Assembly: GCA_001820935.1 (NCBI GenBank)
Contig: MHRI01000011.1
Coordinates: forward strand, 2,718 to 54,056
Length of the DNA: 51,339 nt
Origin: Candidatus Taylorbacteria bacterium RIFCSPHIGHO2_01_FULL_51_15
Lineage (GTDB): Bacteria > Patescibacteriota > Minisyncoccia > Phycocordibacterales > UBA10002
Direction: 5' to 3'
The notes under the pieces were generated by a model. That model worked only from the letters and a program-made list of their open reading frames with translations, was not told where the DNA came from and did not search any database. The position numbers and the translations under genes were made by a program. Below, piece after piece: positions 4,100-51,339 of this stretch. Every line of letters starts with the position of its first letter. The stretch's first letter is position 1.

Positions 4100-4113
4100 T
4101 CGTCTCCTCTCCT

Positions 4114-4342: not shown

Positions 4343-4359
4343 GTGCGCAAAAACCGAAC

Positions 4360-7023: not shown

Positions 7024-7054
7024 TAGGAGACACGGAGAAATCCGAAGCACGGTA

Positions 7055-7155: not shown

Positions 7156-7169
7156 TCACTAATTAAGAC

Positions 7170-7454
7170 ATGTATCCAACCGAAGAAACCGGAGTCACAC
7201 CATTGCGGTCAATGCGGCAGGAGGATGCGGCGGAACAAACGCCTATCCCTAGGCCTCTCCAAAGCCTGCCCGCGACGCCAGAGAAATTTCTTCCGCTGCC
7301 ACGCCATATTTCATGGAGTACCGTCATTGGCATCGTGATCCTCGTCCTCTTTCTCATCCTGGCAGGGCTGTACACTTGGGGCGCCAAGCTTGCCAAAGAA
7401 GATGCTGTATTGCAAAATGCCGAAGTAGGAATTGAGGCGGAAAACACGTTTTAG
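7170..7454 (+). CDS. small single-pass membrane protein
   Basis: 94-aa ORF with one TM helix (WSTVIGIVILVLFLILAGLYTW). Weak call. Confidence 0.4.
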   Translation: MYPTEETGVTPLRSMRQEDAAEQTPIPRPLQSLPATPEKFLPLPRHISWSTVIGIVILVLFLILAGLYTWGAKLAKEDAVLQNAEVGIEAENTF

Positions 7455-7456
7455 AA

Positions 7457-7643
7457 TAGAACTGGTTTCAAAACCTATCGCAATCCAAAGATTCGCGGTA
7501 TTCGAGAGAAAAAGGGCGCAGACGAGGAAGGTGTAGCCGGCTACTCCGACTGAGGATAAGCCATTTTTCACCGAATACCACGAATCGACGATGCGAAATG
7601 GCTTCAATCAACGACGCCATGGTAGGTTTTGAAACCAGTTCTA
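7457..7643. repeat. 187-bp MITE-like hairpin element with 21-bp perfect terminal inverted repeats
   Basis: tagaactggtttcaaaaccta at 7457-7477 is the exact reverse complement of 7623-7643. A nested 15-bp inverted repeat lies at 7490-7504 / 7572-7586 (1 mismatch). Confidence 0.75.
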
Positions 7644-32582: not shown

Positions 32583-34157
32583 ATGAGTTTCGCCTCCGTT
32601 TCCAGCGCCCAGGTGCACCTCTTAAGCACCTATCTCGTGCGCGTTGAAGTGGATCTCTCGAAAGGCCTGAACGCCTTTTCTATCGTCGGGTTGCCTGACA
32701 AAGCGGTGGAGGAAGCGAAAGATCGCATTGCCGCCGCGATCAAAAACACCGGCTTTAAATCCCCGAAGCAGAAAAATCACAAAATAGTTATTTCACTTGC
32801 GCCGGCGGATGTGAGGAAGGAGGGACCAAGTTTCGATCTGCCGATGGCTATTGGATACCTCATCGCCTCTAAATGCCTACCAGCAGACGTGAAGGAAAAA
32901 CTGTTTGTAGGCGAGCTCTCACTCGACGGTATGGTACAGCCAATTGACGGCGTGCTTCCCATCGTCCAAGAAGCGAAGCGGGCAGGCTTCAGGGAAATAT
33001 ATGTACCCAAAGAGAACGCAAAGGAAGCGGCGCTCATCGGTGAGATTGATGTGTACGGTGTAAAGAATTTGTGGGAACTTGTTGCCCACCTTACTAAGAA
33101 AGATATTTTACCAGACGAGAATTGTCCCTTTATACAAAAAAAGAGGATGAGTCCGGTGCCGCAAACCGCGTTTGAAGTCGGTACGCGAGAGTATCAAGTT
33201 GATTTTGCCGATGTGAAGGGTCAGCGCACCGCGAAGCGCGGTTTAGAGATTGCCGCGGCTGGAGGACACAATATCGCCATGTGGGGCCCCCCTGGTACCG
33301 GAAAGACACTGCTCGCGAAAGCGTTCATCTCCATCCTCCCGCCGCTCGATATTGAGGAGGCGCTTGAGGTTACGGGGATTCATTCGGTCGCGGGAGCGCT
33401 CCATGAGCCCCTCATCACGTACCCGCCTTTCCGCGCTCCGCATCATACTGCTTCTTACATCGCGCTTGTCGGAGGGGGTTCAGTGCCTAAGCCCGGTGAG
33501 ATCACGCTCGCGCACCGAGGAGTGCTCTTTCTTGATGAATTTCCAGAATTCGAGCGGCGCGTGATTGACGCGCTTAGGCAGCCGCTTGAGGATCGGATTG
33601 TAAGCGTGTCCCGAGTGAAAGGTTCAGCCCAATTCCCGGCACACTTCACCCTTATCACGGCCATGAATCCTTGCCCGTGCGGAAACAACGGGGTAAAGGG
33701 GAAGCAGTGCACCTGCGCGCAGCATCAGATTGACAGATACAAGCGAAAAATCTCCGGCCCTATCGTGGATCGCATAGATTTGTGGACGGAGGTTTCGATT
33801 GTCGAACATGAAAAGTTGACCGAAGGACGCGGGAGTGAAAAGACGAGCGAAGAAATACGCAGGAAGGTGGAAGCCGCTCGCAAAAAAGCCGAAGAACGGT
33901 ACCACACGCTAAAACTCCCGTTCAAGACAAACAGCGAAGTGGGAGCGCGCGATATCGGAGCGGCAATCCCTCTTAGCGACGAAGTAAAAAAGACATTGAA
34001 TCTTGCCGCGAAAAAGCACGACCTTTCTGCGCGCTCGTATCATCGACTGATCAAACTCGCTCGAACTGTCGCCGACCTCGAGGGCCACGATGAGGTGGCG
34101 GTGGATGATCTTATGGAAGCACTCACATATCGACCGAAACAACTCTCAAATAGTTAG
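32583..34157 (+). CDS. comM: YifB/ComM family Mg-chelatase-like AAA+ ATPase
   Basis: Lon-protease-like N-terminal domain, Walker A GPPGTGKT, Walker B VLFLDEFPEF, and the CPCGN...C.C zinc motif. Confidence 0.88.
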   Translation: MSFASVSSAQVHLLSTYLVRVEVDLSKGLNAFSIVGLPDKAVEEAKDRIAAAIKNTGFKSPKQKNHKIVISLAPADVRKEGPSFDLPMAIGYLIASKCLPADVKEKLFVGELSLDGMVQPIDGVLPIVQEAKRAGFREIYVPKENAKEAALIGEIDVYGVKNLWELVAHLTKKDILPDENCPFIQKKRMSPVPQTAFEVGTREYQVDFADVKGQRTAKRGLEIAAAGGHNIAMWGPPGTGKTLLAKAFISILPPLDIEEALEVTGIHSVAGALHEPLITYPPFRAPHHTASYIALVGGGSVPKPGEITLAHRGVLFLDEFPEFERRVIDALRQPLEDRIVSVSRVKGSAQFPAHFTLITAMNPCPCGNNGVKGKQCTCAQHQIDRYKRKISGPIVDRIDLWTEVSIVEHEKLTEGRGSEKTSEEIRRKVEAARKKAEERYHTLKLPFKTNSEVGARDIGAAIPLSDEVKKTLNLAAKKHDLSARSYHRLIKLARTVADLEGHDEVAVDDLMEALTYRPKQLSNS

Positions 34158-34255: not shown

Positions 34256-34888
34256 TTACAGGAAGGGCGAGACGAGGATTCGTAACCCAAACCCGATAAG
34301 AACTATCCCAAATACTCGAGCCAAGTAGTGCAACTTCGAAGTGAAGCGAGTCTTGACGAGTGGACTTGAGAGCAGAAAGGCAACAAAGGCAAACCACACA
34401 ATGTCGACCAGTGACATCCACACCCCGTACAGCACCTTAATGATGATTGGTGTCGCACCAACTACCTGTGTGAACAGAGCAAAAACGAACAGGTAGGCTT
34501 TCGGATTGCCCATCATGTTAATAAAGCCTTCACGGAACGCGGTGCACGCGGTTGAAACTCTCGCTGAATGAGCAACCTCCGCGTCCACATCATAAGGTTT
34601 CGTCTTGAGAGCTTTGAAGCCAACGTAGATAAGATAGCTTGCGCCCAGAAACTGTAGCGCAAGATACAAGGTGGGTACTCTCACCACAAATCCGCTTAGC
34701 CCCAAAATCGCAAAGCTTACGTGCAGGAACGAACCGACAGCGATTCCGAATACGCAGTATAATGTAAGTCGAAACTGCATGGTCACACTGTTTTTGGCAA
34801 CGAGCGTAAGGTTCGGCCCAGGGCTTATCACCACAGCGATGTGCAGAGCGGCCAACATAAGAAACTCCGACAAATAGGGGATAGTCAT
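34256..34888 (-). CDS. LysE/RhtB family amino-acid exporter
   Basis: 210 aa, six hydrophobic helices. N-terminal AALHIAVVISPGPNLTLV signature. Confidence 0.8.
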   Translation of the reverse strand: MTIPYLSEFLMLAALHIAVVISPGPNLTLVAKNSVTMQFRLTLYCVFGIAVGSFLHVSFAILGLSGFVVRVPTLYLALQFLGASYLIYVGFKALKTKPYDVDAEVAHSARVSTACTAFREGFINMMGNPKAYLFVFALFTQVVGATPIIIKVLYGVWMSLVDIVWFAFVAFLLSSPLVKTRFTSKLHYLARVFGIVLIGFGLRILVSPFL

Positions 34889-35056: not shown

Positions 35057-36055
35057 TTAGAAGGGATTTTTTGCTCCGCGGACCTCGAAGTGGAGGTGCG
35101 TACCGGTCGAGCGACCCGTCGACCCCATGTAGCCGATGATTTCGCCTCGAGTCACCGTATTTCCGACCAAAACCGCGAGAGTTGAAAGGTGGCCGTAGAG
35201 CGTTTGCGTGCCGTTTTGGTGATTGACGACAATGTAATTTCCGTATCCTCCATTCCATCCAGACGAGCGTGCGATAATCACCTCACCGGAGGCTGAAGCG
35301 AGAACGGGTGCTCCCGAATAGCTTGCGATATCAATACCGTTATAGCCGTGAAGTCCTTGTGTTTTCTTGCCACCGATAACCGGGCGGAGGTAGTAGCCTT
35401 CATAGCTCGGGCCAGCAGTACCCCGAAGTGTCGCCGGGCGGCCCGCCAATGAAGCGCTTGGGGGAGCGGCGATTTCGCCGTCAGGCACGAGCACAATATC
35501 GCCAATCGAAAGTCTCGCATTCTCGGTAAGGTGGTTGTATTGAGATATTTCAGTCACATCGGCTTTGTATTTCTTGGCGATGCTTTGCAGTGTGTCGCCT
35601 TTCACGACAGTATGGCGAACGCCGGAGATGGGGAGAATGATGAGCGTCTGACCAGGGCGGATCATGCCGCGACTTATGTCGTTGGCCCAACTGATCGTAT
35701 TCGTGGTCACCCCAAACATCTTCGCAATCGCGCTTAGGGTATCTCCTTCGCGCACGACATAGGTGCTGATGGCCCCGCTCTGATTTTCTTCAATATCCGC
35801 AAGGGTGCCTTCAGGGCCGATTTCGGCAAAAAGCGCCACCCCTCCTACGATGGTAATGTCGCCACCACCCTTTCCTGGATTCGGGTCAAGATTCCGAGCC
35901 GCAACAAGAAGGCCAACGTTTTGGGAATTGACCGGAGAGGAGGTGGTTTCGGCTTTCGCTTCTTCCGTGAAGAGATTAGTGACGAAAGAAACCACACCAG
36001 CGTGAAGATTCTGCGGTGGGAACATAACATAGAAGCTCCACGCCAAAAGCCACAC
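35057..36055 (-). CDS. LysM-domain M23 family metallopeptidase
   Basis: Two LysM repeats (YVVREGDTLSAIAKMFGV..., HTVVKGDTLQSIAKKYKA...). M23 motifs GIDIA and GSTGRSTGTHLHFEV. Confidence 0.9.
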   Translation of the reverse strand: MWLLAWSFYVMFPPQNLHAGVVSFVTNLFTEEAKAETTSSPVNSQNVGLLVAARNLDPNPGKGGGDITIVGGVALFAEIGPEGTLADIEENQSGAISTYVVREGDTLSAIAKMFGVTTNTISWANDISRGMIRPGQTLIILPISGVRHTVVKGDTLQSIAKKYKADVTEISQYNHLTENARLSIGDIVLVPDGEIAAPPSASLAGRPATLRGTAGPSYEGYYLRPVIGGKKTQGLHGYNGIDIASYSGAPVLASASGEVIIARSSGWNGGYGNYIVVNHQNGTQTLYGHLSTLAVLVGNTVTRGEIIGYMGSTGRSTGTHLHFEVRGAKNPF

Positions 36056-38822: not shown

Positions 38823-38908
38823 TCACGAATCAAACGCGAATCGTTCACTTGAATCACGCGAAAGGGATTAGCGATATTCGCGACAGAAATTCGAGTATGA
38901 TTAGAGAT

Positions 38909-39685
38909 ATGTTTAAAAAGAAATCCTTAGGTCAACACTTCCTCCGCGATCCGAAGATTCTCGGCAAGATTGTCGCGGCGGGGAAACTGACACTTGAAGA
39001 CTCTGTACTAGAAATCGGTCCCGGGGAAGGAGGGCTCACGATGCTCTTGCTGGCGAAGGTAAGGAAGGTCGTCGCGGTGGAGAAAGATGATCGCTTGATT
39101 CCCATACTGCGAGAAAGATTCGCTTCGGAAATTGCCTCGGGCAGACTTGAGCTTATCCACGCCGACATTCTTGACTTCTCCCCTACTAACTACTCACTAC
39201 TAGCTACTAACTACAAAGTGGTCGCCAACATCCCCTACTACATTACGGGCGCGCTCATGCGGAAATTTCTGCAGGAGGGACCAGAGCCTTGCATGATGGT
39301 GCTTCTCGTGCAAAAGGAGGTGGCAAGACGGATTGTGGCACAGGACGGTAGGGAGAGTATTCTTTCAATAAGCGTAAAAGCGTATGGAACTCCAAGATAC
39401 GTGGATACGGTCAAGGCGGGCTCATTTTCGCCACCACCGAACGTAGATTCAGCGATTATCGCAATTGAAGGAATTTCGAAAGAGTTTTTTACTCATTGCG
39501 GCGAGAAAAAATTCTTCGCGCTTCTCAAAAAGGGGTTCGCTCACCCAAGAAAGCTCCTCGCGTCAAACCTTGGGATTGAAACGGGGGTACTCGAAACGGC
39601 CGGCATCGCTCCAAACGCTCGGGCGGAAGTTCTCTCTCCAGAAGCTTGGAAAGATCTCGCGACTAAAATACTAGACGGACGCTAA
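38909..39685 (+). CDS. rsmA: 16S rRNA (adenine1518/1519-N6)-dimethyltransferase
   Basis: MFKKKSLGQHFLRDPKILGKIV...VLEIGPGEGGLT...VVANIPYYITGAL. Confidence 0.9.
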   Translation: MFKKKSLGQHFLRDPKILGKIVAAGKLTLEDSVLEIGPGEGGLTMLLLAKVRKVVAVEKDDRLIPILRERFASEIASGRLELIHADILDFSPTNYSLLATNYKVVANIPYYITGALMRKFLQEGPEPCMMVLLVQKEVARRIVAQDGRESILSISVKAYGTPRYVDTVKAGSFSPPPNVDSAIIAIEGISKEFFTHCGEKKFFALLKKGFAHPRKLLASNLGIETGVLETAGIAPNARAEVLSPEAWKDLATKILDGR

Positions 39686-40194
39686 GGAGTTGACCCGTTA
39701 TAAATGATAAGTGGCGCGAAAAAGAAAGGGAGCGGGGTCACCACGGGACAGAGCGATAGACCACAATAGACCCAGGAGACAAAAGGCGCTATGCATACCA
39801 TCGTCGGCAAATATTTGCCTATGATCTTTTGTCCGGGATGCATAGCCGGCCCCCATGGAAACGTGTATGCTCCCACACCTTGAAGCATGACAACTGGGGT
39901 ACCAACCGCAAGGGGAGTTAAGTTTACTTCCTGTACGCCATTGAGGCATCCTGGGCCTACCGGATACCAAAAGCTGTAGACCCCGGGGGGAGGAAACGTA
40001 GGGAGCGCACCTGCGCTCATGATACTTCCGGGGACGCCCGGTACGTTTAGCACTATGCCGGCAAAGTGAGGCAAGAGCGTGAGTCCCAATCCGAGGAAGC
40101 CCACGCCCAGAGCTTGTGCATGAACGCTTCCAGGAAGAACACACAGCATGAGCGCACAGAGACCCCCTCTCCACAATAGCGACAAGCTACGCAT
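39682..40194 (-). CDS. secreted Gly/Pro/Val-rich protein, unknown function
   Basis: MRSLSLLWRGGLCALMLCVLPGSVHA signal peptide. Hydrophobic C-terminus. Divergent from the 40213 block. Confidence 0.5.
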   Translation of the reverse strand: MRSLSLLWRGGLCALMLCVLPGSVHAQALGVGFLGLGLTLLPHFAGIVLNVPGVPGSIMSAGALPTFPPPGVYSFWYPVGPGCLNGVQEVNLTPLAVGTPVVMLQGVGAYTFPWGPAMHPGQKIIGKYLPTMVCIAPFVSWVYCGLSLCPVVTPLPFFFAPLIIYNGSTP

Positions 40195-40212
40195 ATATGA
40201 AATAATAGTAAC

Positions 40213-41064
40213 ATGAAATTTAGCTTGCAAAGCGCTATCGTACTTTTCGTGCTAGCGATAGCAATAGTCGGAGGGGTACTCTGGAGCACTCGTTTTGCCA
40301 CTACAGCTGTCGAGAATTCTCCCGGCCTATCGAGAACATACAAACATCCAATTTTGTCCGAAGTATACATGTCGGAGAACGCTTCTGACACAGACGGTGA
40401 CGGAATTCCTGATTGGGAGGAGAAACTTCGCGGAATGGATCCGAACAAACCTGACTCAGAAGTAAGAGAGGCGAGCTCAGGAATTATACATGATCTTACT
40501 TTGCCCACATTGGAGACACCGGTATCTCCATCGTACAGGAGTGCTACAGCAATTCCCACAGAAACCCCTGCGATACCGCTCGAAGCAGGTAGCGAGAGTG
40601 CATCTCAAGATACCGCAGTTTCTATTGAGTTGCGTACACTTCTGCATAGTTTCGGAAATAATGTTGGTCTTGCATTATCACTCATATTTAATCAGTCCTT
40701 CGCAAGTGAAGAACAGGCATTATTCAAAAACACCGTTGGAACTTCGAGCGTGGATGCTTTGAAGAAACTTGCTCCGGTCGGAAACGCCTATAAAACTGTG
40801 TCGGAAACGCTTCGTCAAGTACAGCCTACTCCTGAAACACGGGAATTGCTCGCTAATCTCCACCGTGCGTATGATAGGATCGGAGGTGCAGTACTCTCAC
40901 TCGCTGATGCACCTACCGAAATACCCATTCTTGGAGAGAGATGGACGCGCTACTCTGAAGCGGCACTTGGTGTAGGAAAAGCTGTCTCTGACATGATTGT
41001 ATTTTTCAAGAAACAGGGAGTTGTATTTTCGCCAAGTGAACCGGGAAGTATTATTTCGTATTAA
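40213..41064 (+). CDS. N-terminally anchored protein with TSP3-like Ca-binding repeat (paralog 1)
   Basis: TM helix (SAIVLFVLAIAIVGGVLW), DTDGDGIPDWEEKLRGMDPNKPDS, helical C-domain ending FFKKQGVVFSPSEPG. Confidence 0.65.
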   Translation: MKFSLQSAIVLFVLAIAIVGGVLWSTRFATTAVENSPGLSRTYKHPILSEVYMSENASDTDGDGIPDWEEKLRGMDPNKPDSEVREASSGIIHDLTLPTLETPVSPSYRSATAIPTETPAIPLEAGSESASQDTAVSIELRTLLHSFGNNVGLALSLIFNQSFASEEQALFKNTVGTSSVDALKKLAPVGNAYKTVSETLRQVQPTPETRELLANLHRAYDRIGGAVLSLADAPTEIPILGERWTRYSEAALGVGKAVSDMIVFFKKQGVVFSPSEPGSIISY

Positions 41065-41081
41065 CTTGTTAATCCATAACC

Positions 41082-42041
41082 ATGTCATGGGGTATGAAAA
41101 TTATGTTAGGAATCGGAGCAGCCATCCTGCTCGGCGGGGGTCTCTGGTTTTTATACACCGGTCGGAGTGAAGCTACGTTCAGGCGCGTGAGCCCCGAAGA
41201 TGCCAAGAGGGCAGCCGCGGTGCTCTCGAAGGATCAAGACGGCGACGAGCTTAAGGACTGGGAGGAAGAATTGTGGCGCACTGACCCCTTGAGCTCCGAC
41301 TCTGATGGAGATGGGACGCTCGATGGGGAAGAGATCAAACTCGGCAGAAATCCTCTGAAGGCAGGGTCCAATGATGAGCTGGATAAAGAAACGATTGAAT
41401 CAAAAACGGTTCCGGGAGGAGGGGATTGGACCGAGACCGATCGCCTTTCTCGAGAGCTTTTCGCCAAATACCTCGCTATCAAGCAATCGGGAGCGCCTTT
41501 CACCGCCGAGGAAGAAGAGGCACTGCTTGCAGATTTTATACACCGATACCCGGAACCAGCATCCATTACCGTATACACGGAAAGCGATATCCGTCTGACC
41601 GAAAAAGACGACGTTGCGGCCTGGCATGGGTATGGGAACGCGATTGGATCGGTGCTTGAGAAGCATAGAAATACAGGGGGCGAGAGTGAGCTTATCATAT
41701 TCGAGCGCGCGCTTGAAAATGAGGACGAAACCGATCTTGCGAGCATAGAGACCCGCGTAGAGCGTTATGAACGGCTACTTCTTGACTTTAAAGCTCTACC
41801 GGCACCAAAAAGTATGCAGCCTATGGCTGTGGCCCTCCTTAATGCCCTTGAAGCCCTCAAACAGAGCGTCGGTGGTATGACGCTTGCGTTTACCGATCCC
41901 GTGCGGGCGCTCTCTTTTGCAACCGCGTATCCGAGCGCGATAGATACGCTCACCGAAAGCTTTGGGCGTATCGCCCTGTTTTTCCAAGATAATGAAGTGG
42001 TGTTTGGGAAGGATGAAGCGGGATACATTCTTACCCAATAA
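41082..42041 (+). CDS. N-terminally anchored protein with TSP3-like Ca-binding repeats (paralog 2)
   Basis: TM helix (IMLGIGAAILLGGGLWFLY), DQDGDELKDWEEELWRTDPLSSDSDGDGTLDGEEIKLGRNP, C-terminus LFFQDNEVVFGKDEAG. Confidence 0.65.
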   Translation: MSWGMKIMLGIGAAILLGGGLWFLYTGRSEATFRRVSPEDAKRAAAVLSKDQDGDELKDWEEELWRTDPLSSDSDGDGTLDGEEIKLGRNPLKAGSNDELDKETIESKTVPGGGDWTETDRLSRELFAKYLAIKQSGAPFTAEEEEALLADFIHRYPEPASITVYTESDIRLTEKDDVAAWHGYGNAIGSVLEKHRNTGGESELIIFERALENEDETDLASIETRVERYERLLLDFKALPAPKSMQPMAVALLNALEALKQSVGGMTLAFTDPVRALSFATAYPSAIDTLTESFGRIALFFQDNEVVFGKDEAGYILTQ

Positions 42042-42050
42042 GCAAGATGT

Positions 42051-42114
42051 AAAGCACAGTGTCCAAAAAGCCAAATAATGAAACAACCCAAAGCACAGTG
42101 TCCAAAAGGCCAAA
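42051..42114. repeat. family-A left arm: 25-nt direct repeat aaagcacagtgtccaaaaRgccaaa x2
   Basis: 42051-42075 and 42090-42114 are 24/25 identical. The same core occurs in A1 (7075-7105) and, inverted, in A2. Confidence 0.8.
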
Positions 42115-42137
42115 CAAAAAAGTAGAATTCACAAAAA

Positions 42138-42512
42138 ATGGGACAGCGTATGGAATCAAAGGAGACAAACAGATATCGAGAGTTGGAAAATCGCACGGCA
42201 ACATTTGCAAAGCAAACGATTGGAGTTTGCCTTAAATTACCGAGGAATAGAGTAAACGATCCACTAGTTAGCCAAGTTATTAGAGCCTCGGGGTCAGTCG
42301 GAGCAAATTATCGTGAAGCAAACGAAGCGTTGGGAAAGAAAGACTTTGTGTATCGTTTAGGGGTTGCTCGTAAGGAGGCGAAGGAAGCACAGTACTGGTT
42401 TGAACTACTAGTGGAGGCAAATCCCCTGCAAAGGGAAGCATTAACGGTGCTTTTGAGAGAGGCGGAAGAACTTCGCAACATCTTATCTGCAATCATAAAC
42501 AAGGTCTCTTAG
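42138..42512 (+). CDS. four-helix-bundle protein (23S rRNA intervening-sequence protein / Avd family)
   Basis: 124 aa. Family-typical pattern: LENRTATFAKQTIGVCLKLPRNRVNDPLVSQVIRASGSVGANYREANEALGKKDFVYRLGVARKEAKEAQYWFELL. Confidence 0.8.
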   Translation: MGQRMESKETNRYRELENRTATFAKQTIGVCLKLPRNRVNDPLVSQVIRASGSVGANYREANEALGKKDFVYRLGVARKEAKEAQYWFELLVEANPLQREALTVLLREAEELRNILSAIINKVS

Positions 42513-42516
42513 CCCC

Positions 42517-42550
42517 TTTGTTTGGCTTTTTGGGTATTGTGTTTTGTGCT
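42517..42550. repeat. family-A right arm (inverted relative to 42051..42119)
   Basis: tttgtttggctttttggg is complementary to ccaaaaagccaaa / gccaaacaaa of the left arm. Starts 5 nt after the ORF stop. Confidence 0.7.
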
Positions 42551-42558
42551 ACTGCGTC

Positions 42559-42604
42559 TTATCCACTTTGTATACACCGCTTATCCACAATCCTCTGCTA
42601 TAAT
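42559..42604 (+). promoter_or_regulatory. tandem DnaA-box-like 9-mers overlapping an extended -10 promoter
   Basis: ttatccact at 42559-42567, ttatccaca at 42581-42589, and tgcTATAAT at 42596-42604. Upstream of the 927-codon ORF. Confidence 0.35.
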
Positions 42605-42727
42605 GGAAGGGATGTGAGAGCGGTTCACACCAAACCCAGCACCTTTGTCGTGAAGCCAGAAGCTTTACGGGGCATTTGTGTATGGAAAAAGGGAGGAAAT
42701 GCGTTCGGCCCATACCGAATCTCAAGG

Positions 42728-45301
42728 GTGTTGGGCAAGCTACTCCTCGGTTTTTTGACTGCACTACTAATTATGCCGGTCTTCTTTTTCATGCGTCCTC
42801 AAAAAGCTGAAGCGCTGGTTTCGTTAGCCCAATGTTTTGCCGCTAAAGGAACCGCTTCGGCCACTGCTGGATCCTCTGCGGCAGCAGCAGCGGTTGCGAG
42901 CGTACCGACAAGCGACGTCACGAATACCGTTACGACGGCGCAAGGCACTGCTGGTACTGATTGGTCCGCCTGCTTCATGAAGGGACTCACGAAGGTGATC
43001 GCGAAAACGCTTCTGCACACCTTTACGCAGTCAATCGTGAACTGGATCAATACCGGTTTCGAAGGGTCGCCTTCGTTCATCACCAATCCCGAAGGGTTCT
43101 TGAACGACATTGCCGATCAGACGATCGGACGTGTGATAGAAGATATTTCGCCGCTCCTCTGTTCTCCATTTAGGTTAGATATAAAGTTTGCACTCGGACT
43201 TAACATGTCGCTGAACACCCGAGAAGAGATTCATTGCCGCCTTACGGATGTGATCGCGAATGTCCGCGGAGCTTATGACGGATTCGTCGCTGGTACCGTT
43301 GGGTCTGGCAATTTGAGCAACTGGATACATATCGCGGGGACTCCACAGAATAATCCCTACGGCGCCTACATCGCAACCACGAATAAATTGAGTGCGAGTA
43401 TCACATCAGCTACCGGACAACAAATCAAACTCCTCGATTGGGGCAAAGGATTCAAGTCATGGAGAAGCTGTAAGAAGTGGGGACCCGATATCAAAGAAGG
43501 AAATCCTCCCAGAGTCGTGCGTAAGGGAGCTTGTATCGAGGAAGGTCCTATCAAAACCCCAGGTTCTATCATTCAAGATCAGGCTACCGGAGCGCTCGGC
43601 ACCACACTGCGTGAGCTTGAAGTTGCCGATGAGATTGATGAGGTGGTCGGAGCGCTTATCAACCAACTCCTCGTAAAGGTGATGAGTGCCGGAGGAGGAC
43701 TCCTCGGTGCGAGTAGTGGTGGCGGTTCAAGTGGCGGAAGCGCTACCGGCTCTCTAGCTACCAACCCGAACTTTGTGCTCGCTAACGCGGATGCCAAAAC
43801 GCCCGAAGGTATCAACTGCCGCTTGCGGTATTATCCGGCAACCGTAGAAGATCCTGAGGGGAGCGGGGTATATGTACCCGATAACAGCGCTGCAAGTGCG
43901 CTCAACAATAGCAATCAAGTATGGACAGACAATCTAGGCGTTGGCAAAACAGTGGGCGTGACAGGAAATGATACCCGACCGCTCGTGCCAGCAAAATATA
44001 TCAAGCAAGGAGTCGCCGAACCTGTAAGCGTGGAAAAAGATCCCGGACAAACCTGGGAAGTCTATTTCGCGAAGATCCGAGCCGGGTGCGAAAATGAGTG
44101 GAACACGCTTATTGATAATGCTTCGACAGTGGGGCTTGGGAAGTATACAGGGGGATCGGTGACCACTTCAGACAAACCAACTACTCCTCAAACTCAAACG
44201 GTGGAAGGCAACATGGCACAGGGAAAAAGGGTGACGCAATCAAGCTCATGTGTTGGTTTTCCTCTATTTCTGCCTGAACCATATGCGTATGTTGCGGTTG
44301 ACGGAAACCGTTCGCCGGGCAATGCGTACATTGCCACCATTGCGTGCACACAGAGGGAGGCAAATCCATGGTGGGAAGTTGACCTTGAAACCAATGACCG
44401 TAGCAACAAAAAGGAAACGGAAACGAAAGAAATTACGAGCATACGAATTTATGGTGCCGGCAGCTGGAATAACGGTACCGACCTTGGGAATAATGCCCTC
44501 TTCTCGCCGGGAGTGATCGTATCCGTGCTCGACAGCAATCGGATGACAGTCTACACGGTAGCGGGCCTGTTGCGGATTGACTCACAGCGCCCATTCGTTG
44601 AGGCATCAATTCCGAAAATACGCGGAAGGTACGTCCGGATAGAGGCGAAAATGGAACCGGGGAAAGCCCCACGCCCTCTGCTCATTGCCGAAGTTGAAGT
44701 CTTCGGGACACAAATTCGCCTTGACGCATCGGGAAACACTACGGCGCCTATTGTTCCCTTCGGCTTTTCCTCGATCAAACCACAGAATCTGCCCAGGCCA
44801 GAGCCCGGTGTGACATTCGGATGGAGTAATATAACCTTTGTGCCAAACCAGTCACAGAGCAAGGCGGAGGAGGGTATCAGACTGCGAGCAAGATTCTACG
44901 AATGTAAGAATGAGCAGAATTGCACGGGAAAAGATGATGAGTTCCAGCAAAACCCAAGCCCATTTACCAACTGGTTCACACAGTTAGAACTCACGTATAG
45001 CGTGCAGAATGTGAGGAGCAACAAATTCGCCATTATGCCTTCTTCTGGAGGGTATATCTACAATACAGATCCAGATACGGGAGTCTTGGTTGAGCCGCCG
45101 CCCAATTGTGATGAAGAGTGTGTACACGGGATTGTCTTCGCCAAAAATCTTTCGGTTGAAAACTATTCGATCAACGTCTCTATGACAGGAACCCTCAATA
45201 CGGGAACTAAAGCGAAGAAACCATTGCGACTTGTAGTCGAAGTCCTCGACAGAACTGGAATCCCAATCGGATCAGCTATAGCAAATTTCGTGACGCAATA
45301 G
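42728..45301 (+). CDS. large secreted protein with C-terminal F5/8-type-C / F-type-lectin-like domain
   Basis: A GTG at 42728 gives the signal peptide VLGKLLLGFLTALLIMPVFFFMRPQKAEA (the start is uncertain; the ORF is open from 42518). Lectin signature GKRVTQSSS...YVAVDGNRS...NPWWEVDL...IRIYG...GRYVRIE...IAEVEVFG. Confidence 0.7.
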   Translation: MLGKLLLGFLTALLIMPVFFFMRPQKAEALVSLAQCFAAKGTASATAGSSAAAAAVASVPTSDVTNTVTTAQGTAGTDWSACFMKGLTKVIAKTLLHTFTQSIVNWINTGFEGSPSFITNPEGFLNDIADQTIGRVIEDISPLLCSPFRLDIKFALGLNMSLNTREEIHCRLTDVIANVRGAYDGFVAGTVGSGNLSNWIHIAGTPQNNPYGAYIATTNKLSASITSATGQQIKLLDWGKGFKSWRSCKKWGPDIKEGNPPRVVRKGACIEEGPIKTPGSIIQDQATGALGTTLRELEVADEIDEVVGALINQLLVKVMSAGGGLLGASSGGGSSGGSATGSLATNPNFVLANADAKTPEGINCRLRYYPATVEDPEGSGVYVPDNSAASALNNSNQVWTDNLGVGKTVGVTGNDTRPLVPAKYIKQGVAEPVSVEKDPGQTWEVYFAKIRAGCENEWNTLIDNASTVGLGKYTGGSVTTSDKPTTPQTQTVEGNMAQGKRVTQSSSCVGFPLFLPEPYAYVAVDGNRSPGNAYIATIACTQREANPWWEVDLETNDRSNKKETETKEITSIRIYGAGSWNNGTDLGNNALFSPGVIVSVLDSNRMTVYTVAGLLRIDSQRPFVEASIPKIRGRYVRIEAKMEPGKAPRPLLIAEVEVFGTQIRLDASGNTTAPIVPFGFSSIKPQNLPRPEPGVTFGWSNITFVPNQSQSKAEEGIRLRARFYECKNEQNCTGKDDEFQQNPSPFTNWFTQLELTYSVQNVRSNKFAIMPSSGGYIYNTDPDTGVLVEPPPNCDEECVHGIVFAKNLSVENYSINVSMTGTLNTGTKAKKPLRLVVEVLDRTGIPIGSAIANFVTQ

Positions 45302-45311
45302 AATACATTTC

Positions 45312-48300
45312 ATGACCTTCTTTCGCGACAAAAAATACCATACCATCTGTGCCAGCGTTGCCCTGCTTATCATGCTGGGCACTTCGGGGATGCTGGCTTT
45401 GCCGCTCATCGCAAGCGCGCAACGTCTACCCACGCCGAAGCTCCAAGGCGATAATATTGACTTCTTCAACCCAAACGCCAATAACGATTTCCTCACACCG
45501 GTATATATACCTTCAAATTCTGTGGAGTTACCACAAGCGGGAGTAGGGACGGCGGCTGAAAAGCAAGCCAATGACGCGAGAATAGCGGTGAATCAACGAA
45601 GTCAGGCGGATGAACTCGCCGCAAAGTTTACCTGTTTGGGGTGGAATGTCGGCATTAACATAAAGGGATGCCTAGCCGGTATCATGGACATTATTATGTG
45701 GATTGCCGCGCGGGCACTATGGGTCGCGGGAATCCTCTTTAACGTTACCCTCTACTTCACCCTCAATTTGAGTGCACTCCTCGACAAGATGCCGATTGTG
45801 GATATCGGCTGGAAGGTGCTTCGCGATCTTGCGAACATCGTGTTCATTTTCATCACACTCTGGTGCGGTATCTCGATCACGCTCGGCATCGGGGATAACG
45901 GCAAGAAAGCGTGGGGCTACCTCGCGCAGATGGTGCTGGTCGCGCTTTTCATTAACTTCTCGCTCTTTATCACAAAAGCCGTGGTGGATGTTTCGAACAT
46001 TGCCGCACTCCACTTCTATTCGCTCACCGTGGATCCAGAACACCAAAAGGACTGGGATGGGGGAATTTCCGAAGCGTATCTCTACGGCCTCAAGCTCTCT
46101 ACGCTGTATAACATTAAGCAGATCGGCGCATGGGATTCAAACAGGAACTCTCTTGTTGGGTCACAGCTCAAAAGTGCCGGAAAAGATAATCTAGATTTCG
46201 GTAATATCATCCTTATCGGCTTTTTCGGTTCGCTCCTCATCATCGTGACGGCGTGGGTATTCTTCGCGGGAGCAATCATGTTTATCTACCGCGCCATCAC
46301 ACTTATCATCCTTATGATGCTCTCACCGCTCGCGTTCGTCGGACTCATTCTCCCCGGCGCGTCCGGCATGGCGCATCAGTGGTGGAGCAAGCTCTGGAGT
46401 CAGGCATTCTTCGCACCACTCTACCTCGCGCTTGCCTACATTGTCGTGCGCACGATTAATTCAGATAGCTTTCAACTCTCGCTACTAGGGGGCGCGAGTG
46501 GATCAGGTCTTGTTGGGGCCCTTACCGGCAGCGACCCGAATGCGATCGCCGTTATCTTCAACTTCATCATCCTCATCGGGCTTATGGTGGGGTCGCTTAT
46601 GGTCGCTTCGCACCTCGGTGCCCGCGGAAGCGAAATGGCCATGGCCGGGTGGGAGAAAAGCCAGGGGGCAACTATTGGTATCGTCGGAGCTACTACGCGC
46701 GGTATAATTAAGACACCTTCAGCCACATTACGCGGGGCGGGAAATATAGTCTCAAACACTCCAAAAGGTTTGGGCAGAGCAACTAGCTGGATGGCGAACA
46801 CGCGATTGCTTAAGGGCAGCCGCCTCGGCAATGTCGTCGCCGGTCTTGGAAACAAAATGCAAAAACGTGGACAAGAATTTCATGAGCGTGGGATCGGGAA
46901 AAAAATTCGCAAGGTTACGGGGGTGGCCAGCAAGGCTATGGACGTGCGCTATTTGGAAGAGAGAGCTGGGCAGAGCTGGCTCGGTAATACCACTATAGGG
47001 AAAGGCGTACGTGCCGCAACGATAGGGGGCGCTGCCAATCTGAAAATTGGCGACAAGTCACTGCAAGAAGCACACGAGGTAGGTGAGGAGCAAGAAACTG
47101 CCCGCCACATCATCAGTCTTATTGCGGAGGCGAGAGGGAGAGGCAGCGAGCTTGAGCCCCTGTGGCACGAACAGGATCACCTGAATCAGGAAAAAGTAGA
47201 CGCGGAGAAAAAGCAGGAGGAAGGTAGAAAAGAGCTGGAACAGGCAGAACGGCGGCCACTCACGGCACAGGAGAAGAAGAAAGTGCAGGAAGCCGAAAAG
47301 GAACTCGAACAAGCAAAGGTAATACCCGACGAGCGCAAGAAAGAGATACAGAAACAAAAACAAAAAATCCAGGAGTCGGACAAAAACGTCGCTGCCGCGA
47401 AAACCTACGCGGCGGCGCATCCCAACGATGCAAACGCACAAGAGGAGGTGAAAAAAGCAGACGCCGAACTCGCGAAGCGCTTCGAACGTCTCAAGGAGCT
47501 CGAAACGCACACGCCCGAAGAACAGGAACGCATCGCAGCGGCCGAAGCGAGGCTGGAGGCGGCCCGGTATAGGGCTGATCCGGAGCTTATCAAACAGCGG
47601 AAGACAGAGTTAGTCGCGGCGAAGCAGCCGACTCCCGAGCATCAGGAGAAGATACAGAAGTCCGAATCAACGCTCGAAGAAGCAAAGACGTTGCTTAAGA
47701 AAAAAACAGAGGAGCGTGAGGAGAGTGAGAGGAAGACGGGGGTGCGGGACATTGTGCTTCGCTCCGAAGAGGAAAAGCTCGAAAATCTAGTCAAACGCCG
47801 TACGGAAGCCGCCGAAGAAACAAGGAAACTGACCGCCGAAGAACAGGGCAGAGTGGCAAAGGCCGAAAAAGCGCTTGATGAAGCTTTGCATCCGCCGCTC
47901 ACCAAGGAGCAGGAAGACGCAAAGGAAGTCGCGATCAGAGTGGCTAATGACAAACTGGATAAAGCAGCTGAAGATCTTGAAAGAGCGAGCAAAAATCTTG
48001 CCAAGTTTAAACAGGAGAAAGGAGCTAAGATGGCGGAACTGGTCGCAAAGCGTTCGAACGCCTTCTCGAAGATGTCGGCGCAGGAGTTCGTCCACTATGC
48101 CCCGAAGGAAGACAAGAAGCGCATGGACTTCGAAAGCGATCCGCCAGGCCACTTCCTCGCCGTGATGGAGGATGAGCACTTAACCGAGGAGGAAAAAGAG
48201 GAGGCGACGCATCATTATGTACATCGTCTATGGCAAGAGGCGCGCCGAGGAGAGAATCGAAATGAACGCTTTAATGAACTCCTCCTCAATTTCCAAAAGA

Positions 48301-48446
48301 AATTTGGCAAAAAAATGCAAGTGGTGGAGCGTCTTGCCAAGGAGCTTGAACGTCAGGGTTTTGTAGAGCAGCTGAAAGAATTGCGACGTAAAATTACTGA
48401 AGCGGAGGAAAGGGAAGAGGAGGAGCGGAGAAGGAGGAATGGTTAA
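45312..48446 (+). CDS. polytopic membrane protein with 460-aa K/E-rich coiled-coil tail
   Basis: Signal peptide (LALPLIASAQ), about 9 hydrophobic helices between aa 110 and 470, then a charged repeat region. The TrbL/VirB6-like topology is my inference only. Confidence 0.7.
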   Translation: MTFFRDKKYHTICASVALLIMLGTSGMLALPLIASAQRLPTPKLQGDNIDFFNPNANNDFLTPVYIPSNSVELPQAGVGTAAEKQANDARIAVNQRSQADELAAKFTCLGWNVGINIKGCLAGIMDIIMWIAARALWVAGILFNVTLYFTLNLSALLDKMPIVDIGWKVLRDLANIVFIFITLWCGISITLGIGDNGKKAWGYLAQMVLVALFINFSLFITKAVVDVSNIAALHFYSLTVDPEHQKDWDGGISEAYLYGLKLSTLYNIKQIGAWDSNRNSLVGSQLKSAGKDNLDFGNIILIGFFGSLLIIVTAWVFFAGAIMFIYRAITLIILMMLSPLAFVGLILPGASGMAHQWWSKLWSQAFFAPLYLALAYIVVRTINSDSFQLSLLGGASGSGLVGALTGSDPNAIAVIFNFIILIGLMVGSLMVASHLGARGSEMAMAGWEKSQGATIGIVGATTRGIIKTPSATLRGAGNIVSNTPKGLGRATSWMANTRLLKGSRLGNVVAGLGNKMQKRGQEFHERGIGKKIRKVTGVASKAMDVRYLEERAGQSWLGNTTIGKGVRAATIGGAANLKIGDKSLQEAHEVGEEQETARHIISLIAEARGRGSELEPLWHEQDHLNQEKVDAEKKQEEGRKELEQAERRPLTAQEKKKVQEAEKELEQAKVIPDERKKEIQKQKQKIQESDKNVAAAKTYAAAHPNDANAQEEVKKADAELAKRFERLKELETHTPEEQERIAAAEARLEAARYRADPELIKQRKTELVAAKQPTPEHQEKIQKSESTLEEAKTLLKKKTEEREESERKTGVRDIVLRSEEEKLENLVKRRTEAAEETRKLTAEEQGRVAKAEKALDEALHPPLTKEQEDAKEVAIRVANDKLDKAAEDLERASKNLAKFKQEKGAKMAELVAKRSNAFSKMSAQEFVHYAPKEDKKRMDFESDPPGHFLAVMEDEHLTEEEKEEATHHYVHRLWQEARRGENRNERFNELLLNFQKKFGKKMQVVERLAKELERQGFVEQLKELRRKITEAEEREEEERRRRNG

Positions 48447-48505
48447 AAACTCATAAGAATAATAGGCGAGTGACGTTGGTAAATATTAATAAGTAATAAG
48501 CCATT

Positions 48506-49756
48506 ATGCCGTACGAAACACCTCCAACTGTCGCAGAAACGGTAGTCGAGCGACTCAAACGACAAGCTGCCGAAGTGGAGAAGAAAATAGTCGAGATCGA
48601 TGAAACGATCGATGAGCGAATCGAGCTCATGTACAAATCGGGCGAGCTTGAGCGACCGGAGAAACCGACTGCCGCGGACCAGCTGGGATGGGAATCTCCG
48701 GGCCATCGCACGGCACTTCGTAACATGCGTAATACTGACATGATTCGGGTATGGTATCAGTACACACCTGAAATATTCGAGCAGGAGTTACTCACGGAAA
48801 CCATTATGCAAGGCGTTTGGGTGGATGTGCGTAAAAGTGAGAAATTTGATTCCGGCTTCAAGGACAGGATGCGCGTAAAAAAACGTCAGTACGTACGATA
48901 CAGCGGTGACCTTACTCTTGGATTCCACCCTAACGTGACAAAACGGCTAAATGAAACGCATGGGCACGCACTAGATGAGCTTCGCAAACTGGCTAATAAG
49001 CGCATGCAGGAGCTCGGTCCGACGGGGAAAAATGAAAAGGGAGAAGAGATACGGAGCTATTTCGATGTGTTCGCCGAAGATTTCATATACGATGAAAAGA
49101 AGCGCAATATAAGTGAAGAGTATCGAAAACTCATTGAAGAGCATAATGCGATGGTACCGGAGGAGGAGAGGATTTCGGACGCAGTCACCCCAAAAGAGCG
49201 CGCGACATTGTACTATGGCGCTGGTCAGGCTATGTGGGATGCCGTATCGCAGAATCTTGCGGATAATGAATTCACGCTCATGCCCGGTTCACTTCGAGAG
49301 CTCTACGTCGTCATGCGAAATATGGATGAAAACAAACTTCAGAATTACCGTGATCGCGACCTTGACGTTAAGATACCCATGGTGGAGTTCTTCATAGAGC
49401 AATTTAAGGATGAGGTGCTCGGTGTGCGCGAAGCGACCAAGAACAACCTCGAACTCTTTACTTGGTTTGTCAACAAACAAGGCCAAAGTTTCATCCCATT
49501 TAACGCCTTACGCGAAGATTTGAAAGACTGGTGGGAAATTATCAAGTCGCTCCTTGGTCGACCCAAAGATTCTCGAGTACAACCATCTATATATCCGTAT
49601 TTACAAGATGATAGGTCGGGGGGGAACAATTCGAAGGTCATGCAGAAGCTCAATGAATTCCGAGCCGAGCGGGGACTTTCGCGTTGGACTGTGGATGAAA
49701 CGCCATTCGCGCGTATCGGGTTTACCACCGGGTTTGCAAAACAGCAAAAAAAGTGA
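48506..49756 (+). CDS. soluble hypothetical protein
   Basis: 416-aa ORF, no TM helix, no recognised motif. Co-directional, 59 nt after the previous gene. Confidence 0.6.
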   Translation: MPYETPPTVAETVVERLKRQAAEVEKKIVEIDETIDERIELMYKSGELERPEKPTAADQLGWESPGHRTALRNMRNTDMIRVWYQYTPEIFEQELLTETIMQGVWVDVRKSEKFDSGFKDRMRVKKRQYVRYSGDLTLGFHPNVTKRLNETHGHALDELRKLANKRMQELGPTGKNEKGEEIRSYFDVFAEDFIYDEKKRNISEEYRKLIEEHNAMVPEEERISDAVTPKERATLYYGAGQAMWDAVSQNLADNEFTLMPGSLRELYVVMRNMDENKLQNYRDRDLDVKIPMVEFFIEQFKDEVLGVREATKNNLELFTWFVNKQGQSFIPFNALREDLKDWWEIIKSLLGRPKDSRVQPSIYPYLQDDRSGGNNSKVMQKLNEFRAERGLSRWTVDETPFARIGFTTGFAKQQKK

Positions 49757-49811
49757 TGTCGTAGCGCTGTAGTAAAGGTCAACGTCAAGTGGTAGGTAAG
49801 TGAAATGAACT

Positions 49812-51290
49812 ATGGATCCTCAAGACGCAAGAATACAACTGAATATTTTCATCGACAATCTGCCCGACAGTGTTTTCATTCCGCTCCGTGATAGAAATAT
49901 TGACCCAAGTCTCGTTACGACCGACATTACCTCGGCGTATGAATTCGTTATTCGAGAAACAGGACACATTGTGGAAGGTGTGCGGCGTGTGCTGGCAGGA
50001 GAAGATTCACCAAACAACTTCGTGGCGTTCATTCAAAAAGACGAACATATAGAAGAAGATAACCGTCAGAAGATACCTGTGCTTGCATATGAAATCCAGA
50101 CAAAGGTATTCGATCCAGTACTGCCGATTTTGAAACAAGCGGGGTTCACAATAAAGGAAGGAAGGGTGCCGGAGCCGCCGAAATCGGTGGTGAAGGATGA
50201 AGTAAGAAGTGTGAATTATGGGAGGGAGACACCCCCCGCTTCCGAAGACGGAGGCGCCCCCTTTGCTAAGGGAGATATCCGACCACCTATAGATGAAAAG
50301 AATGCTCGATCCCTCCTTCGCATCGCGGCCGGCACCACATATACCGAAGGGGACCTTAGGAGCGCCTTCGAGGCATTACCGCAAGGACTCCGGCAATCAA
50401 TCTCATCGGTTGATACCGCGAACGCCATCCAGGACGTCGCCAAAAAGCATCTCTTGCATGTTGACCAGATGGCGGCACTCGCGAGCGAAACGGGGCTGGT
50501 GCTTCTTGGGCTCACGCATCCTAGGGATTTTATCCTAAATCTTGCAAGACGCCTGCGGGTGCCTGAAGAAAAGGCGCGAGAGGTCGCAAGAGACATAAGC
50601 GGGCAGATACTTTCGAAAGTCCGAGAAGCTCTCCGCGGTCTTCACGAAGACGTGAAGCCGCCGAAAGAAAATACCGAATATCGAAGTTCGAATATCGAAA
50701 AATCTCGAACCACACAACAAGAGAACACTGAACTAAACGCTAAACGCTATCCGCCAGCTGGCGGACTAAACGCTTCTCTCAAAACTCCCTATTCTGCCGG
50801 AGCAAAATGGAATGTGGGAGAAAATATCCTTGCTAAACAAGCCGAGGAAAAACTCTCTCGGGAGGAGATGCTTCATGGGATTGAAAATCCTAAATCGATA
50901 TACGAAAATACGAATTATACGAATCAACGAATGGCTACGAATAAGACGAGGGCGTCAGTAGCCGAGAAGAAAGAAGCGGTGGGACCGACGGGGTGGAAAG
51001 CGGTGCAGAATGAAGTACGAAGTATGAATTATGAAGTAGGGAAGAGCCAAATCCCATCGAAACCAGTCGTTCCCGCATCCCCCATTACCGCGCCTAGACC
51101 GTCCATGACGGCGGAAAAAGTTCGACCGCAAAGCGAGGGAGATACCCCACCTCAACCCTCACCTCTAAAGAGGGGAGGAAAGGCCGATGACGCGGCAAGC
51201 TTCTTGGAGCAGAAATTGGAACAACCCATGTCCATTCCGAGGGAGGAGAAGCGGTATACGACAGATCCGTATAGAGAGCCACTCGCGTAA
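49812..51290 (+). CDS. hypothetical protein with repeat-word mosaic in its C-terminal half
   Basis: 492-aa ORF. The N-terminal 270 aa look like ordinary protein. From ~50660 the ORF runs through five intergenic repeat families without a stop and ends ...RYTTDPYREPLA. Confidence 0.6.
   Translation: MDPQDARIQLNIFIDNLPDSVFIPLRDRNIDPSLVTTDITSAYEFVIRETGHIVEGVRRVLAGEDSPNNFVAFIQKDEHIEEDNRQKIPVLAYEIQTKVFDPVLPILKQAGFTIKEGRVPEPPKSVVKDEVRSVNYGRETPPASEDGGAPFAKGDIRPPIDEKNARSLLRIAAGTTYTEGDLRSAFEALPQGLRQSISSVDTANAIQDVAKKHLLHVDQMAALASETGLVLLGLTHPRDFILNLARRLRVPEEKAREVARDISGQILSKVREALRGLHEDVKPPKENTEYRSSNIEKSRTTQQENTELNAKRYPPAGGLNASLKTPYSAGAKWNVGENILAKQAEEKLSREEMLHGIENPKSIYENTNYTNQRMATNKTRASVAEKKEAVGPTGWKAVQNEVRSMNYEVGKSQIPSKPVVPASPITAPRPSMTAEKVRPQSEGDTPPQPSPLKRGGKADDAASFLEQKLEQPMSIPREEKRYTTDPYREPLA
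50750..50765. repeat. 16-nt palindrome TCCGCCAGCTGGCGGA inside a coding region
   Basis: Identical to 21226-21241 and 30863-30878. Here it is translated as YPPAGGL. Confidence 0.9.
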
Positions 51291-51339
51291 GCGCGAGTGT
51301 CGAATTATGAAGTATGAATACTGAATTAAGGGAAAGAAA

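Follow-up and report, generated by a model that had tools for sequence, protein, structure and literature searches.

A type IV secretion system (T4SS) has been described in the Patescibacteria (Wang et al., 2023; PMC10633639), surveyed over 2,474 virB4 genes (Quinonero-Coronel et al., 2025; PMC12102498) and reviewed (PMC12857230). In Southlakia epibionticum it was found by transposon sequencing to be essential for epibiotic growth, and no coupling protein or relaxase could be recognised (PMC10633639). It is the first T4SS on which the survival of its own bacterium was reported to depend. According to the survey KsgA, DnaA and RnpA are frequent near virB4 in Patescibacteria, and a relaxase is absent; VirB6 was found by hidden Markov models in only 480 proteins, VirB8 homologs occurred almost exclusively in the ABY1 class, and no adhesins were found (PMC12102498). 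We have studied a stretch of 51,339 nucleotides (the window) from Candidatus Taylorbacteria bacterium RIFCSPHIGHO2_01_FULL_51_15 (contig MHRI01000011.1), toward the end of which lie six genes that we call A to F. Very probably this block is the promoter-proximal half of a T4SS, the chromosomal system of monoderm type (MPF-FATA-like) that the Patescibacteria have beside the replication origin.

At the level of the system there is nothing new, the T4SS itself having been published in 2023–2025. The new content is modest: B, the core of C and the core of F are conserved, operon-coupled components in the Paceibacteria, and C bears swappable binding modules. Thrombospondin type 3 (TSP3), lectin and discoidin components are not mentioned in the survey (PMC12102498), and neither it nor the original description (PMC10633639) nor the review (PMC12857230) considers what B, C and F do. 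An initial annotation had interpreted the block as six orphan envelope proteins, forming a candidate lineage-specific apparatus for contact or transfer between cells. The idea of a contact or transfer machine agrees with a VirB6-type protein D and with the T4SS genes that come next in relatives. The terms orphan and lineage-specific have to be dropped, given that the core of C by itself numbers 6356 cluster representatives and that the system is the published one (PMC12102498, PMC10633639, PMC12857230). All six open reading frames (ORFs) were confirmed at their coordinates, co-directional on the plus strand (Table 1). Scans against Pfam and NCBIfam found no enzymatic domain in the block proteins, as the annotation had stated.

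The assignment of protein D to the VirB6 family is transitive, and is made because its close homologs pass the cut-off of the profile PF04610 (25.9 bits). The homologs P0074, P0089, P0067 and P0068 score 42.5, 31.3, 28.5 and 27.3 bits, respectively, covering profile positions ~25–213 of 215, and D matches these four proteins with E = 3e-55, 2.5e-39, 8.7e-62 and 7.7e-61. The direct match of D alone to TrbL_4 of Pfam is below threshold (E = 0.083, 12.7 bits, where the cut-off is 27). The consensus of the D family scores 20.2 bits (E = 4e-4) against TrbL_4, over the same helices as in the window protein, and among 30 aligned family members 10 match TrbL_4 and 5 match TrbL. Consensus scans of Pfam and NCBIfam, and profile searches of the PDB, gave nothing for the D consensus beyond this weak TrbL_4 match.

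The initial annotation had remarked on a likeness of the helix pattern of D to proteins of the TrbL/VirB6/TcpH type, and this guess was correct. Hydropathy analysis gives an N-terminal signal or anchor, then some seven to eight hydrophobic helices spread over residues 113–437, more than the five transmembrane helices asked of a polytopic protein of this family. The helices are followed by a stretch rich in basic residues (13 K/R versus 2 D/E in residues 431–520), and then by a long tail in which residues 600–1044 are rich in E, K, R and A (E 19%, K 13%). The homologous ORFs range from 575 to 1254 residues, with one outlier of 1960, so that the length of the tail is highly variable. Judged from its sequence, D is a membrane translocon subunit of the VirB6/TrbL family, of the 'extended' kind with a long charged cytoplasmic tail.

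Does D lie among the genes of a T4SS? One genome per GTDB species was scanned with the VirB6 alignment, giving 80 loci, and 83 related Paceibacteria loci were compared by tblastn, using as queries the window proteins (for D, its N-terminal part) and the downstream proteins of one relative, L002. D was matched in all 83 loci, PrgI in 71, C in 70, the TrsD-like protein in 67, VirB4 in 63, B in 55, KsgA in 54, UvrD in 52, F in 52, A in 23 and E in 7. Wherever they were detected the genes keep the same order and strand, except for some weak matches to A (e.g., on the minus strand in L003). The consensus order is uvrD-ksgA-(A)-B-C-VirB6-(E)-F-PrgI/VirB3-TrsD-VirB4. B, C and F of the relatives therefore stand in one co-directional string with VirB6, PrgI/VirB3, the TrsD-like protein and VirB4, with a pilin after it in L045. 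L002 and L003 illustrate the arrangement, comprising a LysM-M23 gene on the minus strand, uvrD, ksgA, one or more TSP3 proteins, a large secreted protein, VirB6, homologs of E and F, PrgI, a TraC-like protein and VirB4. VirB4 of the relatives has the domains P-loop_TraG, AAA_10 and CagE_TrbE_VirB, PrgI and the TraC-like protein are likewise assigned by Pfam, and the latter (215 residues) matches the NCBIfam models of TrsD and of the VirB4 N-terminus.

The wider context is chromosomal and close to the origin. The gene ksgA is directly upstream of the block, in the window as in 54 of the 83 loci, and in fully sampled loci VirB4 is followed by a VirB2-like pilin, yidC, rnpA and dnaA. After VirB4 in L045 come proteins of 102 and 353 residues, a T4SS pilin (PF18895, 130 residues, 17361–17753) and a protein of 414 residues, then jag and yidC; L086 and L090 have yidC, rnpA and dnaA further down, the latter ending yidC-rnpA-dnaA. 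Between virB4 and yidC there are four to five conserved co-directional genes (L045 15920–19019, L086 15970–20301, L090 16235–20019), one of which encodes a protein of ~410 residues with weak beta-propeller matches. The unnamed conserved genes in this interval are further parts of the same machine.

In over 50 genomes at species level the block is found at one and the same site of the chromosome (uvrD-ksgA ... yidC-rnpA-dnaA), its GC content shows no island-like shift, and no relaxase, coupling protein or integrase is present in the Pfam gene tables of the 10-kb flanks of the loci read. These properties are difficult to reconcile with an integrated conjugative element, whose T4SS would pass DNA to other cells. 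The phylogeny of VirB4 does place the Patescibacteria systems beside MPF-FATA conjugation machines, although relaxases occur in only 103 Patescibacteria genomes (PMC12102498), and selfish genes are found at the locus (LAGLIDADG intein, PDDEXK_3, DUF559, PF05635). We consider a conjugative element extremely unlikely.

DNA might instead be taken up, by a ComB-like T4SS serving natural transformation or nucleotide scavenging. A ComM homolog lies 6 kb upstream of the block and is syntenic in 28 loci, nucleotide synthesis is lacking in Patescibacteria, and T4SS loci of the ABY1 class co-localise with competence genes (PMC12102498). Yet housekeeping genes on both strands separate ComM from the block. 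Moreover, in what the review relays of the work on S. epibionticum (PMC10633639 via PMC12857230), competence requires ComEC and type IV pili, and cells deleted for comEC lose competence but stay viable; the T4SS, by contrast, is essential. A role in DNA uptake is thus very unlikely.

The initial annotation had noted that no ATPase is visible, and that the block runs to the edge of the window and might continue. The block does reach the edge, and in related genomes PrgI/VirB3, the TrsD-like protein and VirB4 come next. The contig itself (scaffold_298 of ENA ERZ28563803, 131,644 bp) ends ~0.45 kb beyond the window and ~0.5 kb past F (L001 11480–11971), and what follows F is only a second PF05635 gene; inspection beyond 51.3 kb therefore yielded no ATPase in this organism, and a VirB4 in its relatives. 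A second assembly of the same organism (ERZ27254752; end of L085) stops inside F, and both breaks fall where prgI, trsD and virB4 are expected. The ATPase genes of the block are probably cut off by the end of the contig. A contig break induced by a repeat was considered and found no support at the protein level, at which the two PF05635 genes share no detectable similarity.

As an ORF, protein C begins at a TTG, and this version of 927 residues is probably an over-extension. The true start is likely the GTG at 42728 (MLGKLLLGF..., with an AEA cleavage site), because the reading of the sequence and the consensus of the homologs both point to it; this gives ~857 residues, matching the size of about 860 estimated initially. 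This GTG has a poor Shine-Dalgarno sequence, though it is in frame and agrees with the homologs. A perfect Shine-Dalgarno sequence, AGGGAGG, is found with an ATG at 42699 (within 42690–42760), out of frame with C and opening an ORF of 19 codons; it could reflect a leader peptide, an assembly frameshift or chance.

We modelled C with AlphaFold2 (AF2) using an alignment of 88 sequences, giving a mean predicted local distance difference test score (pLDDT) of 73. The model has a helical core of moderate confidence, a beta-sandwich of high confidence and further beta domains. Searching the PDB with Foldseek returned first the F-type lectin domain of lectinolysin (4gwi/3lei; E = 1.6e-10, template modelling score 0.82, 27% identity), followed by CBM32 and discoidin modules and, weakly, immunoglobulin (Ig) adhesins of the MSCRAMM type. 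The sequence search phmmer found FBP32 (3CQO, E = 4.3e-9) and eel agglutinin (1K12, E = 1.1e-4) among PDB sequences, and the Pfam family F5_F8_type_C_2 was matched below threshold (E = 8.7e-5). The signature of an F5/8 type C or F-type lectin recognised earlier (QSSS, AVDGN, NPWWEVDL and RYVRIE, at residues 574, 593, 616 and 704) is thus borne out by both sequence and fold. The canonical fucose-binding triad His/Arg/Arg is lost, His being replaced by Cys and the first Arg by Thr, with the second Arg kept (HMMER alignment to 1K12, read by eye). Because the triad is not kept, the sugar specificity of the lectin module of C (residues ~574–740, 44237–44734) may differ from that of the fucolectins.

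Conservation mapping shows that C is conserved only over residues ~140–400. At their C-termini some homologs have a discoidin, PKD or DUF5011 module and others have no such module, and the homologs measure 301–1063 residues in all. C has thereby been shown to consist of a constant helical core with interchangeable carbohydrate- or surface-binding modules, here one of F-type lectin fold. The earlier proposal of a carbohydrate-binding adhesin as a part of the machine is right insofar as the lectin fold is present, but the lectin is a variable module and not a conserved feature. A search of 1.84 billion proteins gave 6356 cluster representatives of the core family at 50% identity, 4082 of them with E < 1e-30; the best 150 of the 6356 matches are all close, and none has a name. 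The core has no relative in the PDB, Pfam or NCBIfam (profile of 56 sequences against PDB sequences; scans with each member and with the consensus). Lectin and Ig-domain targets appear to dominate the best 50 matches of each Foldseek list, masking the helical core, and against viral structures only lectin and Ig receptor-binding domains were returned. Two other candidates were set aside, i.e., DUF4141 (one of 56 members, E = 2e-4, treated as noise) and a tape-measure match that falls in a low-complexity stretch rich in Ala and Ser.

Both A and B carry DxDGDG..DWEE motifs, in line with the annotation of TSP3-like repeats (DxDGDGxxDxxE) in two anchored proteins. The Pfam model TSP3_bac scores 22.2 and 18.5 bits on the two window proteins, below its cut-off of 25; the family consensus reaches 40.5 bits against TSP3 (PF18884) with two repeats, and many homologs carry PF18884. 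A and B had been called paralogs; the similarity is detectable but weak (BLASTP 1e-5 and 5e-4), and A is a divergent, local paralog of B. Several of the loci scored for A are weak cross-hits at the position of B. B is conserved along its whole length, and its AF2 model (pLDDT 82.8) comprises a transmembrane helix, loops with the Ca-binding repeats and an all-helical bundle. The best Foldseek match of B in the PDB has an E-value of only 0.77, the top matches being four-helix-bundle sensor domains. An identity of A or B as VirB8/NTF2-like proteins (TcpC/PrgL/ConB) was rejected, the B model being all-helical and without such a match in Foldseek.

E and F both lack hydrophobic segments in the hydropathy analysis, consistent with their annotation as soluble proteins. 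E is homologous to the domain with which the longer VirB6 homologs end, and has 35% identity to residues 932–1211 of P0012 (E = 2e-40). Its homologs are a separate gene in L002 and L005 and lie within the VirB6 ORF in L003, L004, L006 and L007, with a marginal match in L011. E is a VirB6 tail domain that has been detached into a gene of its own. F is conserved only over residues ~160–285, and its place is always between VirB6 and PrgI/VirB3. Its core was assigned to no family by PDB profile search, by Pfam scans of each member or by consensus scans of Pfam and NCBIfam; HAAS was matched by 4 of 43 members and treated as noise.

A number of points weigh against our interpretation. D itself falls below every Pfam threshold for TrbL. 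VirB3, TrsD and VirB4 are not on the contig, both assemblies stopping inside F or within ~0.5 kb of it. The clustering of VirB3 and VirB4 with D is seen in relatives only (PrgI in 71 and VirB4 in 63 of the 83 loci, downstream and on the same strand), and that this organism has the whole system is concluded from relatives of ~45–70% identity. No fold or family was found for the core of C, the helical domain of B or F (PDB, Pfam, NCBIfam, and Foldseek for B), and the model of the C core has only moderate confidence (pLDDT ~50–86). Lastly, the whole region ComM/M23-uvrD-ksgA-yidC (to dnaA) is collinear across the lineage, the M23 gene being syntenic in 45 related loci and ComM in 28. Conserved neighbourhood alone is therefore weak evidence for B, C and F as parts of the machine.

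This last point raises the possibility that B and C (and A) are free-standing adhesins or wall proteins, placed beside a T4SS by frozen gene order, with only D (and E) belonging to it. The housekeeping genes uvrD and ksgA are equally syntenic, B, C and F have no similarity to known T4SS components detectable in the same searches, and essential lectin-like adhesins unrelated to the T4SS are known in Saccharibacteria (PMC10633639). The spacing of the genes argues otherwise. The stop of C and the start of VirB6 overlap or are a few nucleotides apart, with a median gap of 3 nt and ≤30 nt in 54 of 68 loci, many being overlaps of 4 nt. The coupling of B to C is similarly tight (median 8.5 nt), and the median gap from D to F is 15.5 nt; recurrent larger gaps of ~450–520 nt correspond to inserted small genes. 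In L088, the locus of the most distant homolog of C that was detected, C still adjoins PrgI, TrsD and VirB4. The coupling distances are a stronger argument than gene order for the membership of B, C and F, and we judge the free-standing explanation unlikely. Of the six genes only B, C, D and F are conserved, and they are closely coupled to one another; the check for synteny of all six, proposed with the annotation, held for these four and not for A and E.

In the large class Paceibacteria the unassigned genes B, C and F equal the recognised components in conservation and in the tightness of their coupling to VirB6. They are candidates for host recognition (C) and for the VirB8 and adhesin functions not found in the 2025 survey. 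In the T4SS that we envisage, C would be exported by Sec; its core would dock either on the pilus or on the VirB6 channel, at its outer face, while the variable module would bind the surface of the host cell. B (and A) could act in the wall zone as helical struts, anchored in the membrane and stabilised by Ca2+, and might fill the scaffolding place held by VirB8-like proteins in other Gram-positive systems. F and the tail formed by D and E may provide a cytoplasmic platform that meets VirB3, TrsD and VirB4. What passes through the contact with the host cell is probably protein, or molecules derived from the host, rather than conjugating DNA, because no relaxase or coupling protein is present in the flanks read and because, in the analogous case of Southlakia epibionticum, epibiotic growth requires the T4SS and does not require competence.

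The positions of the genes and domains are collected in Table 1.

Table 1. Genes and domains of the T4SS block and its surroundings (window coordinates unless a related locus is named)
Feature	Position	Strand	Length	Description
A	40213–41064	+	283 aa	N-terminally anchored; one TSP3-type Ca-binding repeat at ~40381–40461
B	41082–42041	+	319 aa	Bitopic; transmembrane helix at residues 3–26; two TSP3 repeats at ~41229–41366
B, extracytoplasmic all-helical bundle	~41424–42038	+		AF2 model
PF05635/TIGR02436 four-helix-bundle gene, inserted	42138–42512	+		Pfam, NCBIfam
C	42518–45301	+	927 aa from TTG	Secreted; directly upstream of the VirB6 gene (D)
C, conserved helical core	42935–43717			Residues ~140–400; conservation mapping
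C, F-type lectin fold	44192–44734			Residues ~560–740; then beta-rich domains to the C-terminus
D	45312–48446	+	1044 aa	Extended VirB6/TrbL-family polytopic membrane protein (predicted), with signal or anchor
D, transmembrane domain	45609–46751			Residues ~100–480
D, charged cytoplasmic tail	~47109–48443			Probably coiled-coil
E	48506–49756	+	416 aa	Soluble; homolog of VirB6 C-terminal domain
F	49812–51290	+	492 aa	Soluble; conserved domain of ~110 aa, residues ~160–285 (50289–50666)
Second PF05635 four-helix-bundle gene	51314–51339	+		Start only, cut by the window end
ksgA	38849–39685			Directly upstream of the block; homologous ORFs in L002/L003 are PF00398 RrnaAD
LysM-LysM-Peptidase_M23 wall hydrolase	35057–36055	-		Divergent from uvrD
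LysE exporter	34256–34888	-		Ahead of uvrD
ComM homolog	32583–34157			Mg-chelatase-like helicase; 6 kb upstream of the block
Small selfish-looking genes in relatives	L002 17030–17305; L003 6169–6618, 15423–15782, 16261–16671, 17393–17809

The intergenic gaps in the window are 17 nt between A and B, 96 nt between B and the inserted gene, 5 nt from there to C, 10 nt between C and D, 59 nt between D and E and 55 nt between E and F. A promoter-like site at 40179–40206 lies immediately before A, in a scan for promoters and terminators whose counts were not above shuffled expectation. The LysM-M23 hydrolase is tentatively taken as a possible VirB1-type wall opener of the system, because the survey reports LysM and M23 domains in VirB1 homologs, and an association of these homologs with VirB4 specifically in Paceibacteria (PMC12102498). 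The gene of PF05635 between B and C is not part of the machine. Elsewhere, small genes of this kind are inserted between different genes of the operon.

Further features of the loci are the following. The intergenic position in the T4SS operon of genes for PF05635 four-helix bundles (bAvd-like), PDDEXK_3 and DUF559 differs between genomes, and virB4 of L002 and L003 contains an intein with a LAGLIDADG endonuclease. At the VirB6/F position in L088, between C and PrgI, there are three genes (3970–7481; 413, 407 and 342 residues) with no Pfam match, which may be a split or strongly diverged VirB6. Between ksgA and A an ORF of 182 residues is present on the minus strand (39682–40230), overlapping the start of A by 18 nt. 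Its product is rich in Cys, Gly and Pro with an N-terminus like a signal peptide, and it is a gene call in the source assembly. The only homolog found is in L002 (59% identity), and it matches no family.

How does the locus compare with described systems? The closest is the T4SS of Southlakia epibionticum ML1 (SEML1_0006-0019), which is likewise of monoderm type, with VirB6, VirB3/PrgI, TrsD, VirB4 and a VirB2-like pilin. Both sit in the chromosome close to the origin, near KsgA, RnpA and DnaA, and neither has a relaxase or coupling protein beside it. The locus studied here differs in being the Paceibacteria (Parcubacteria) version, with only its first half on the contig, and a single pilin gene rather than an array is seen in L045.

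The conjugative T4SSs of Gram-positive MPF-FATA type (Prg of pCF10, Tcp of pCW3, Con of ICEBs1, and that of Tn916) share a VirB6-like polytopic protein (PrgH/TcpH/ConG), a VirB3 of the PrgI family, VirB4 and a nearby wall hydrolase, and have no outer-membrane core components. Unlike them, the present locus lacks an adjacent relaxase or coupling protein and has a VirB2-like pilin. No NTF2 protein resembling VirB8/TcpC was found here, B being all-helical, and the locus is vertically inherited and chromosomal and not a mobile element.

Individual components can be compared in the same way. D resembles the extended VirB6 proteins, i.e., the VirB6 paralogs of the Rickettsiales Rvh system and TraG of the F plasmid, in what the review reports of them (Alvarez-Martinez and Christie, 2009, via PMC12857230), in combining a TrbL/VirB6 domain with a large hydrophilic C-terminal extension. 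It differs in that its extension is ~450 residues, charged and probably coiled-coil, and that the terminal domain is either fused or encoded separately as E. C shares its fold and the motifs AxDGN and NPWWxVDL with the F-type lectins (1K12, FBP32 3CQO, and lectinolysin of Streptococcus mitis, 3LEI/4GWI), from which it differs in the fucose-binding triad.

The comparison with VirB5, TraC and CagL of Gram-negative T4SSs concerns C as a whole. Like these proteins C is predicted to be Sec-exported, largely helical and adhesive, and is encoded immediately upstream of virB6 in a system with a VirB2-like pilin. Its core of ~260 residues is larger, and adhesion would fall to a lectin or Ig module separate from the core. 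Profile search of PDB sequences revealed no sequence similarity of the core to solved structures of the VirB5 type, and the resemblance is functional and positional only. We offer as a tentative and rather doubtful proposal that the core of C is the VirB5 counterpart of the monoderm T4SS, sited either at the tip of the VirB2-like pilus or on the VirB6 channel, with the C-terminal modules setting the host surface that is bound and B replacing VirB8 as scaffold of the wall zone. If C is such a counterpart of VirB5, a single gene, through its C-terminal module, could reveal the host range of Paceibacteria.

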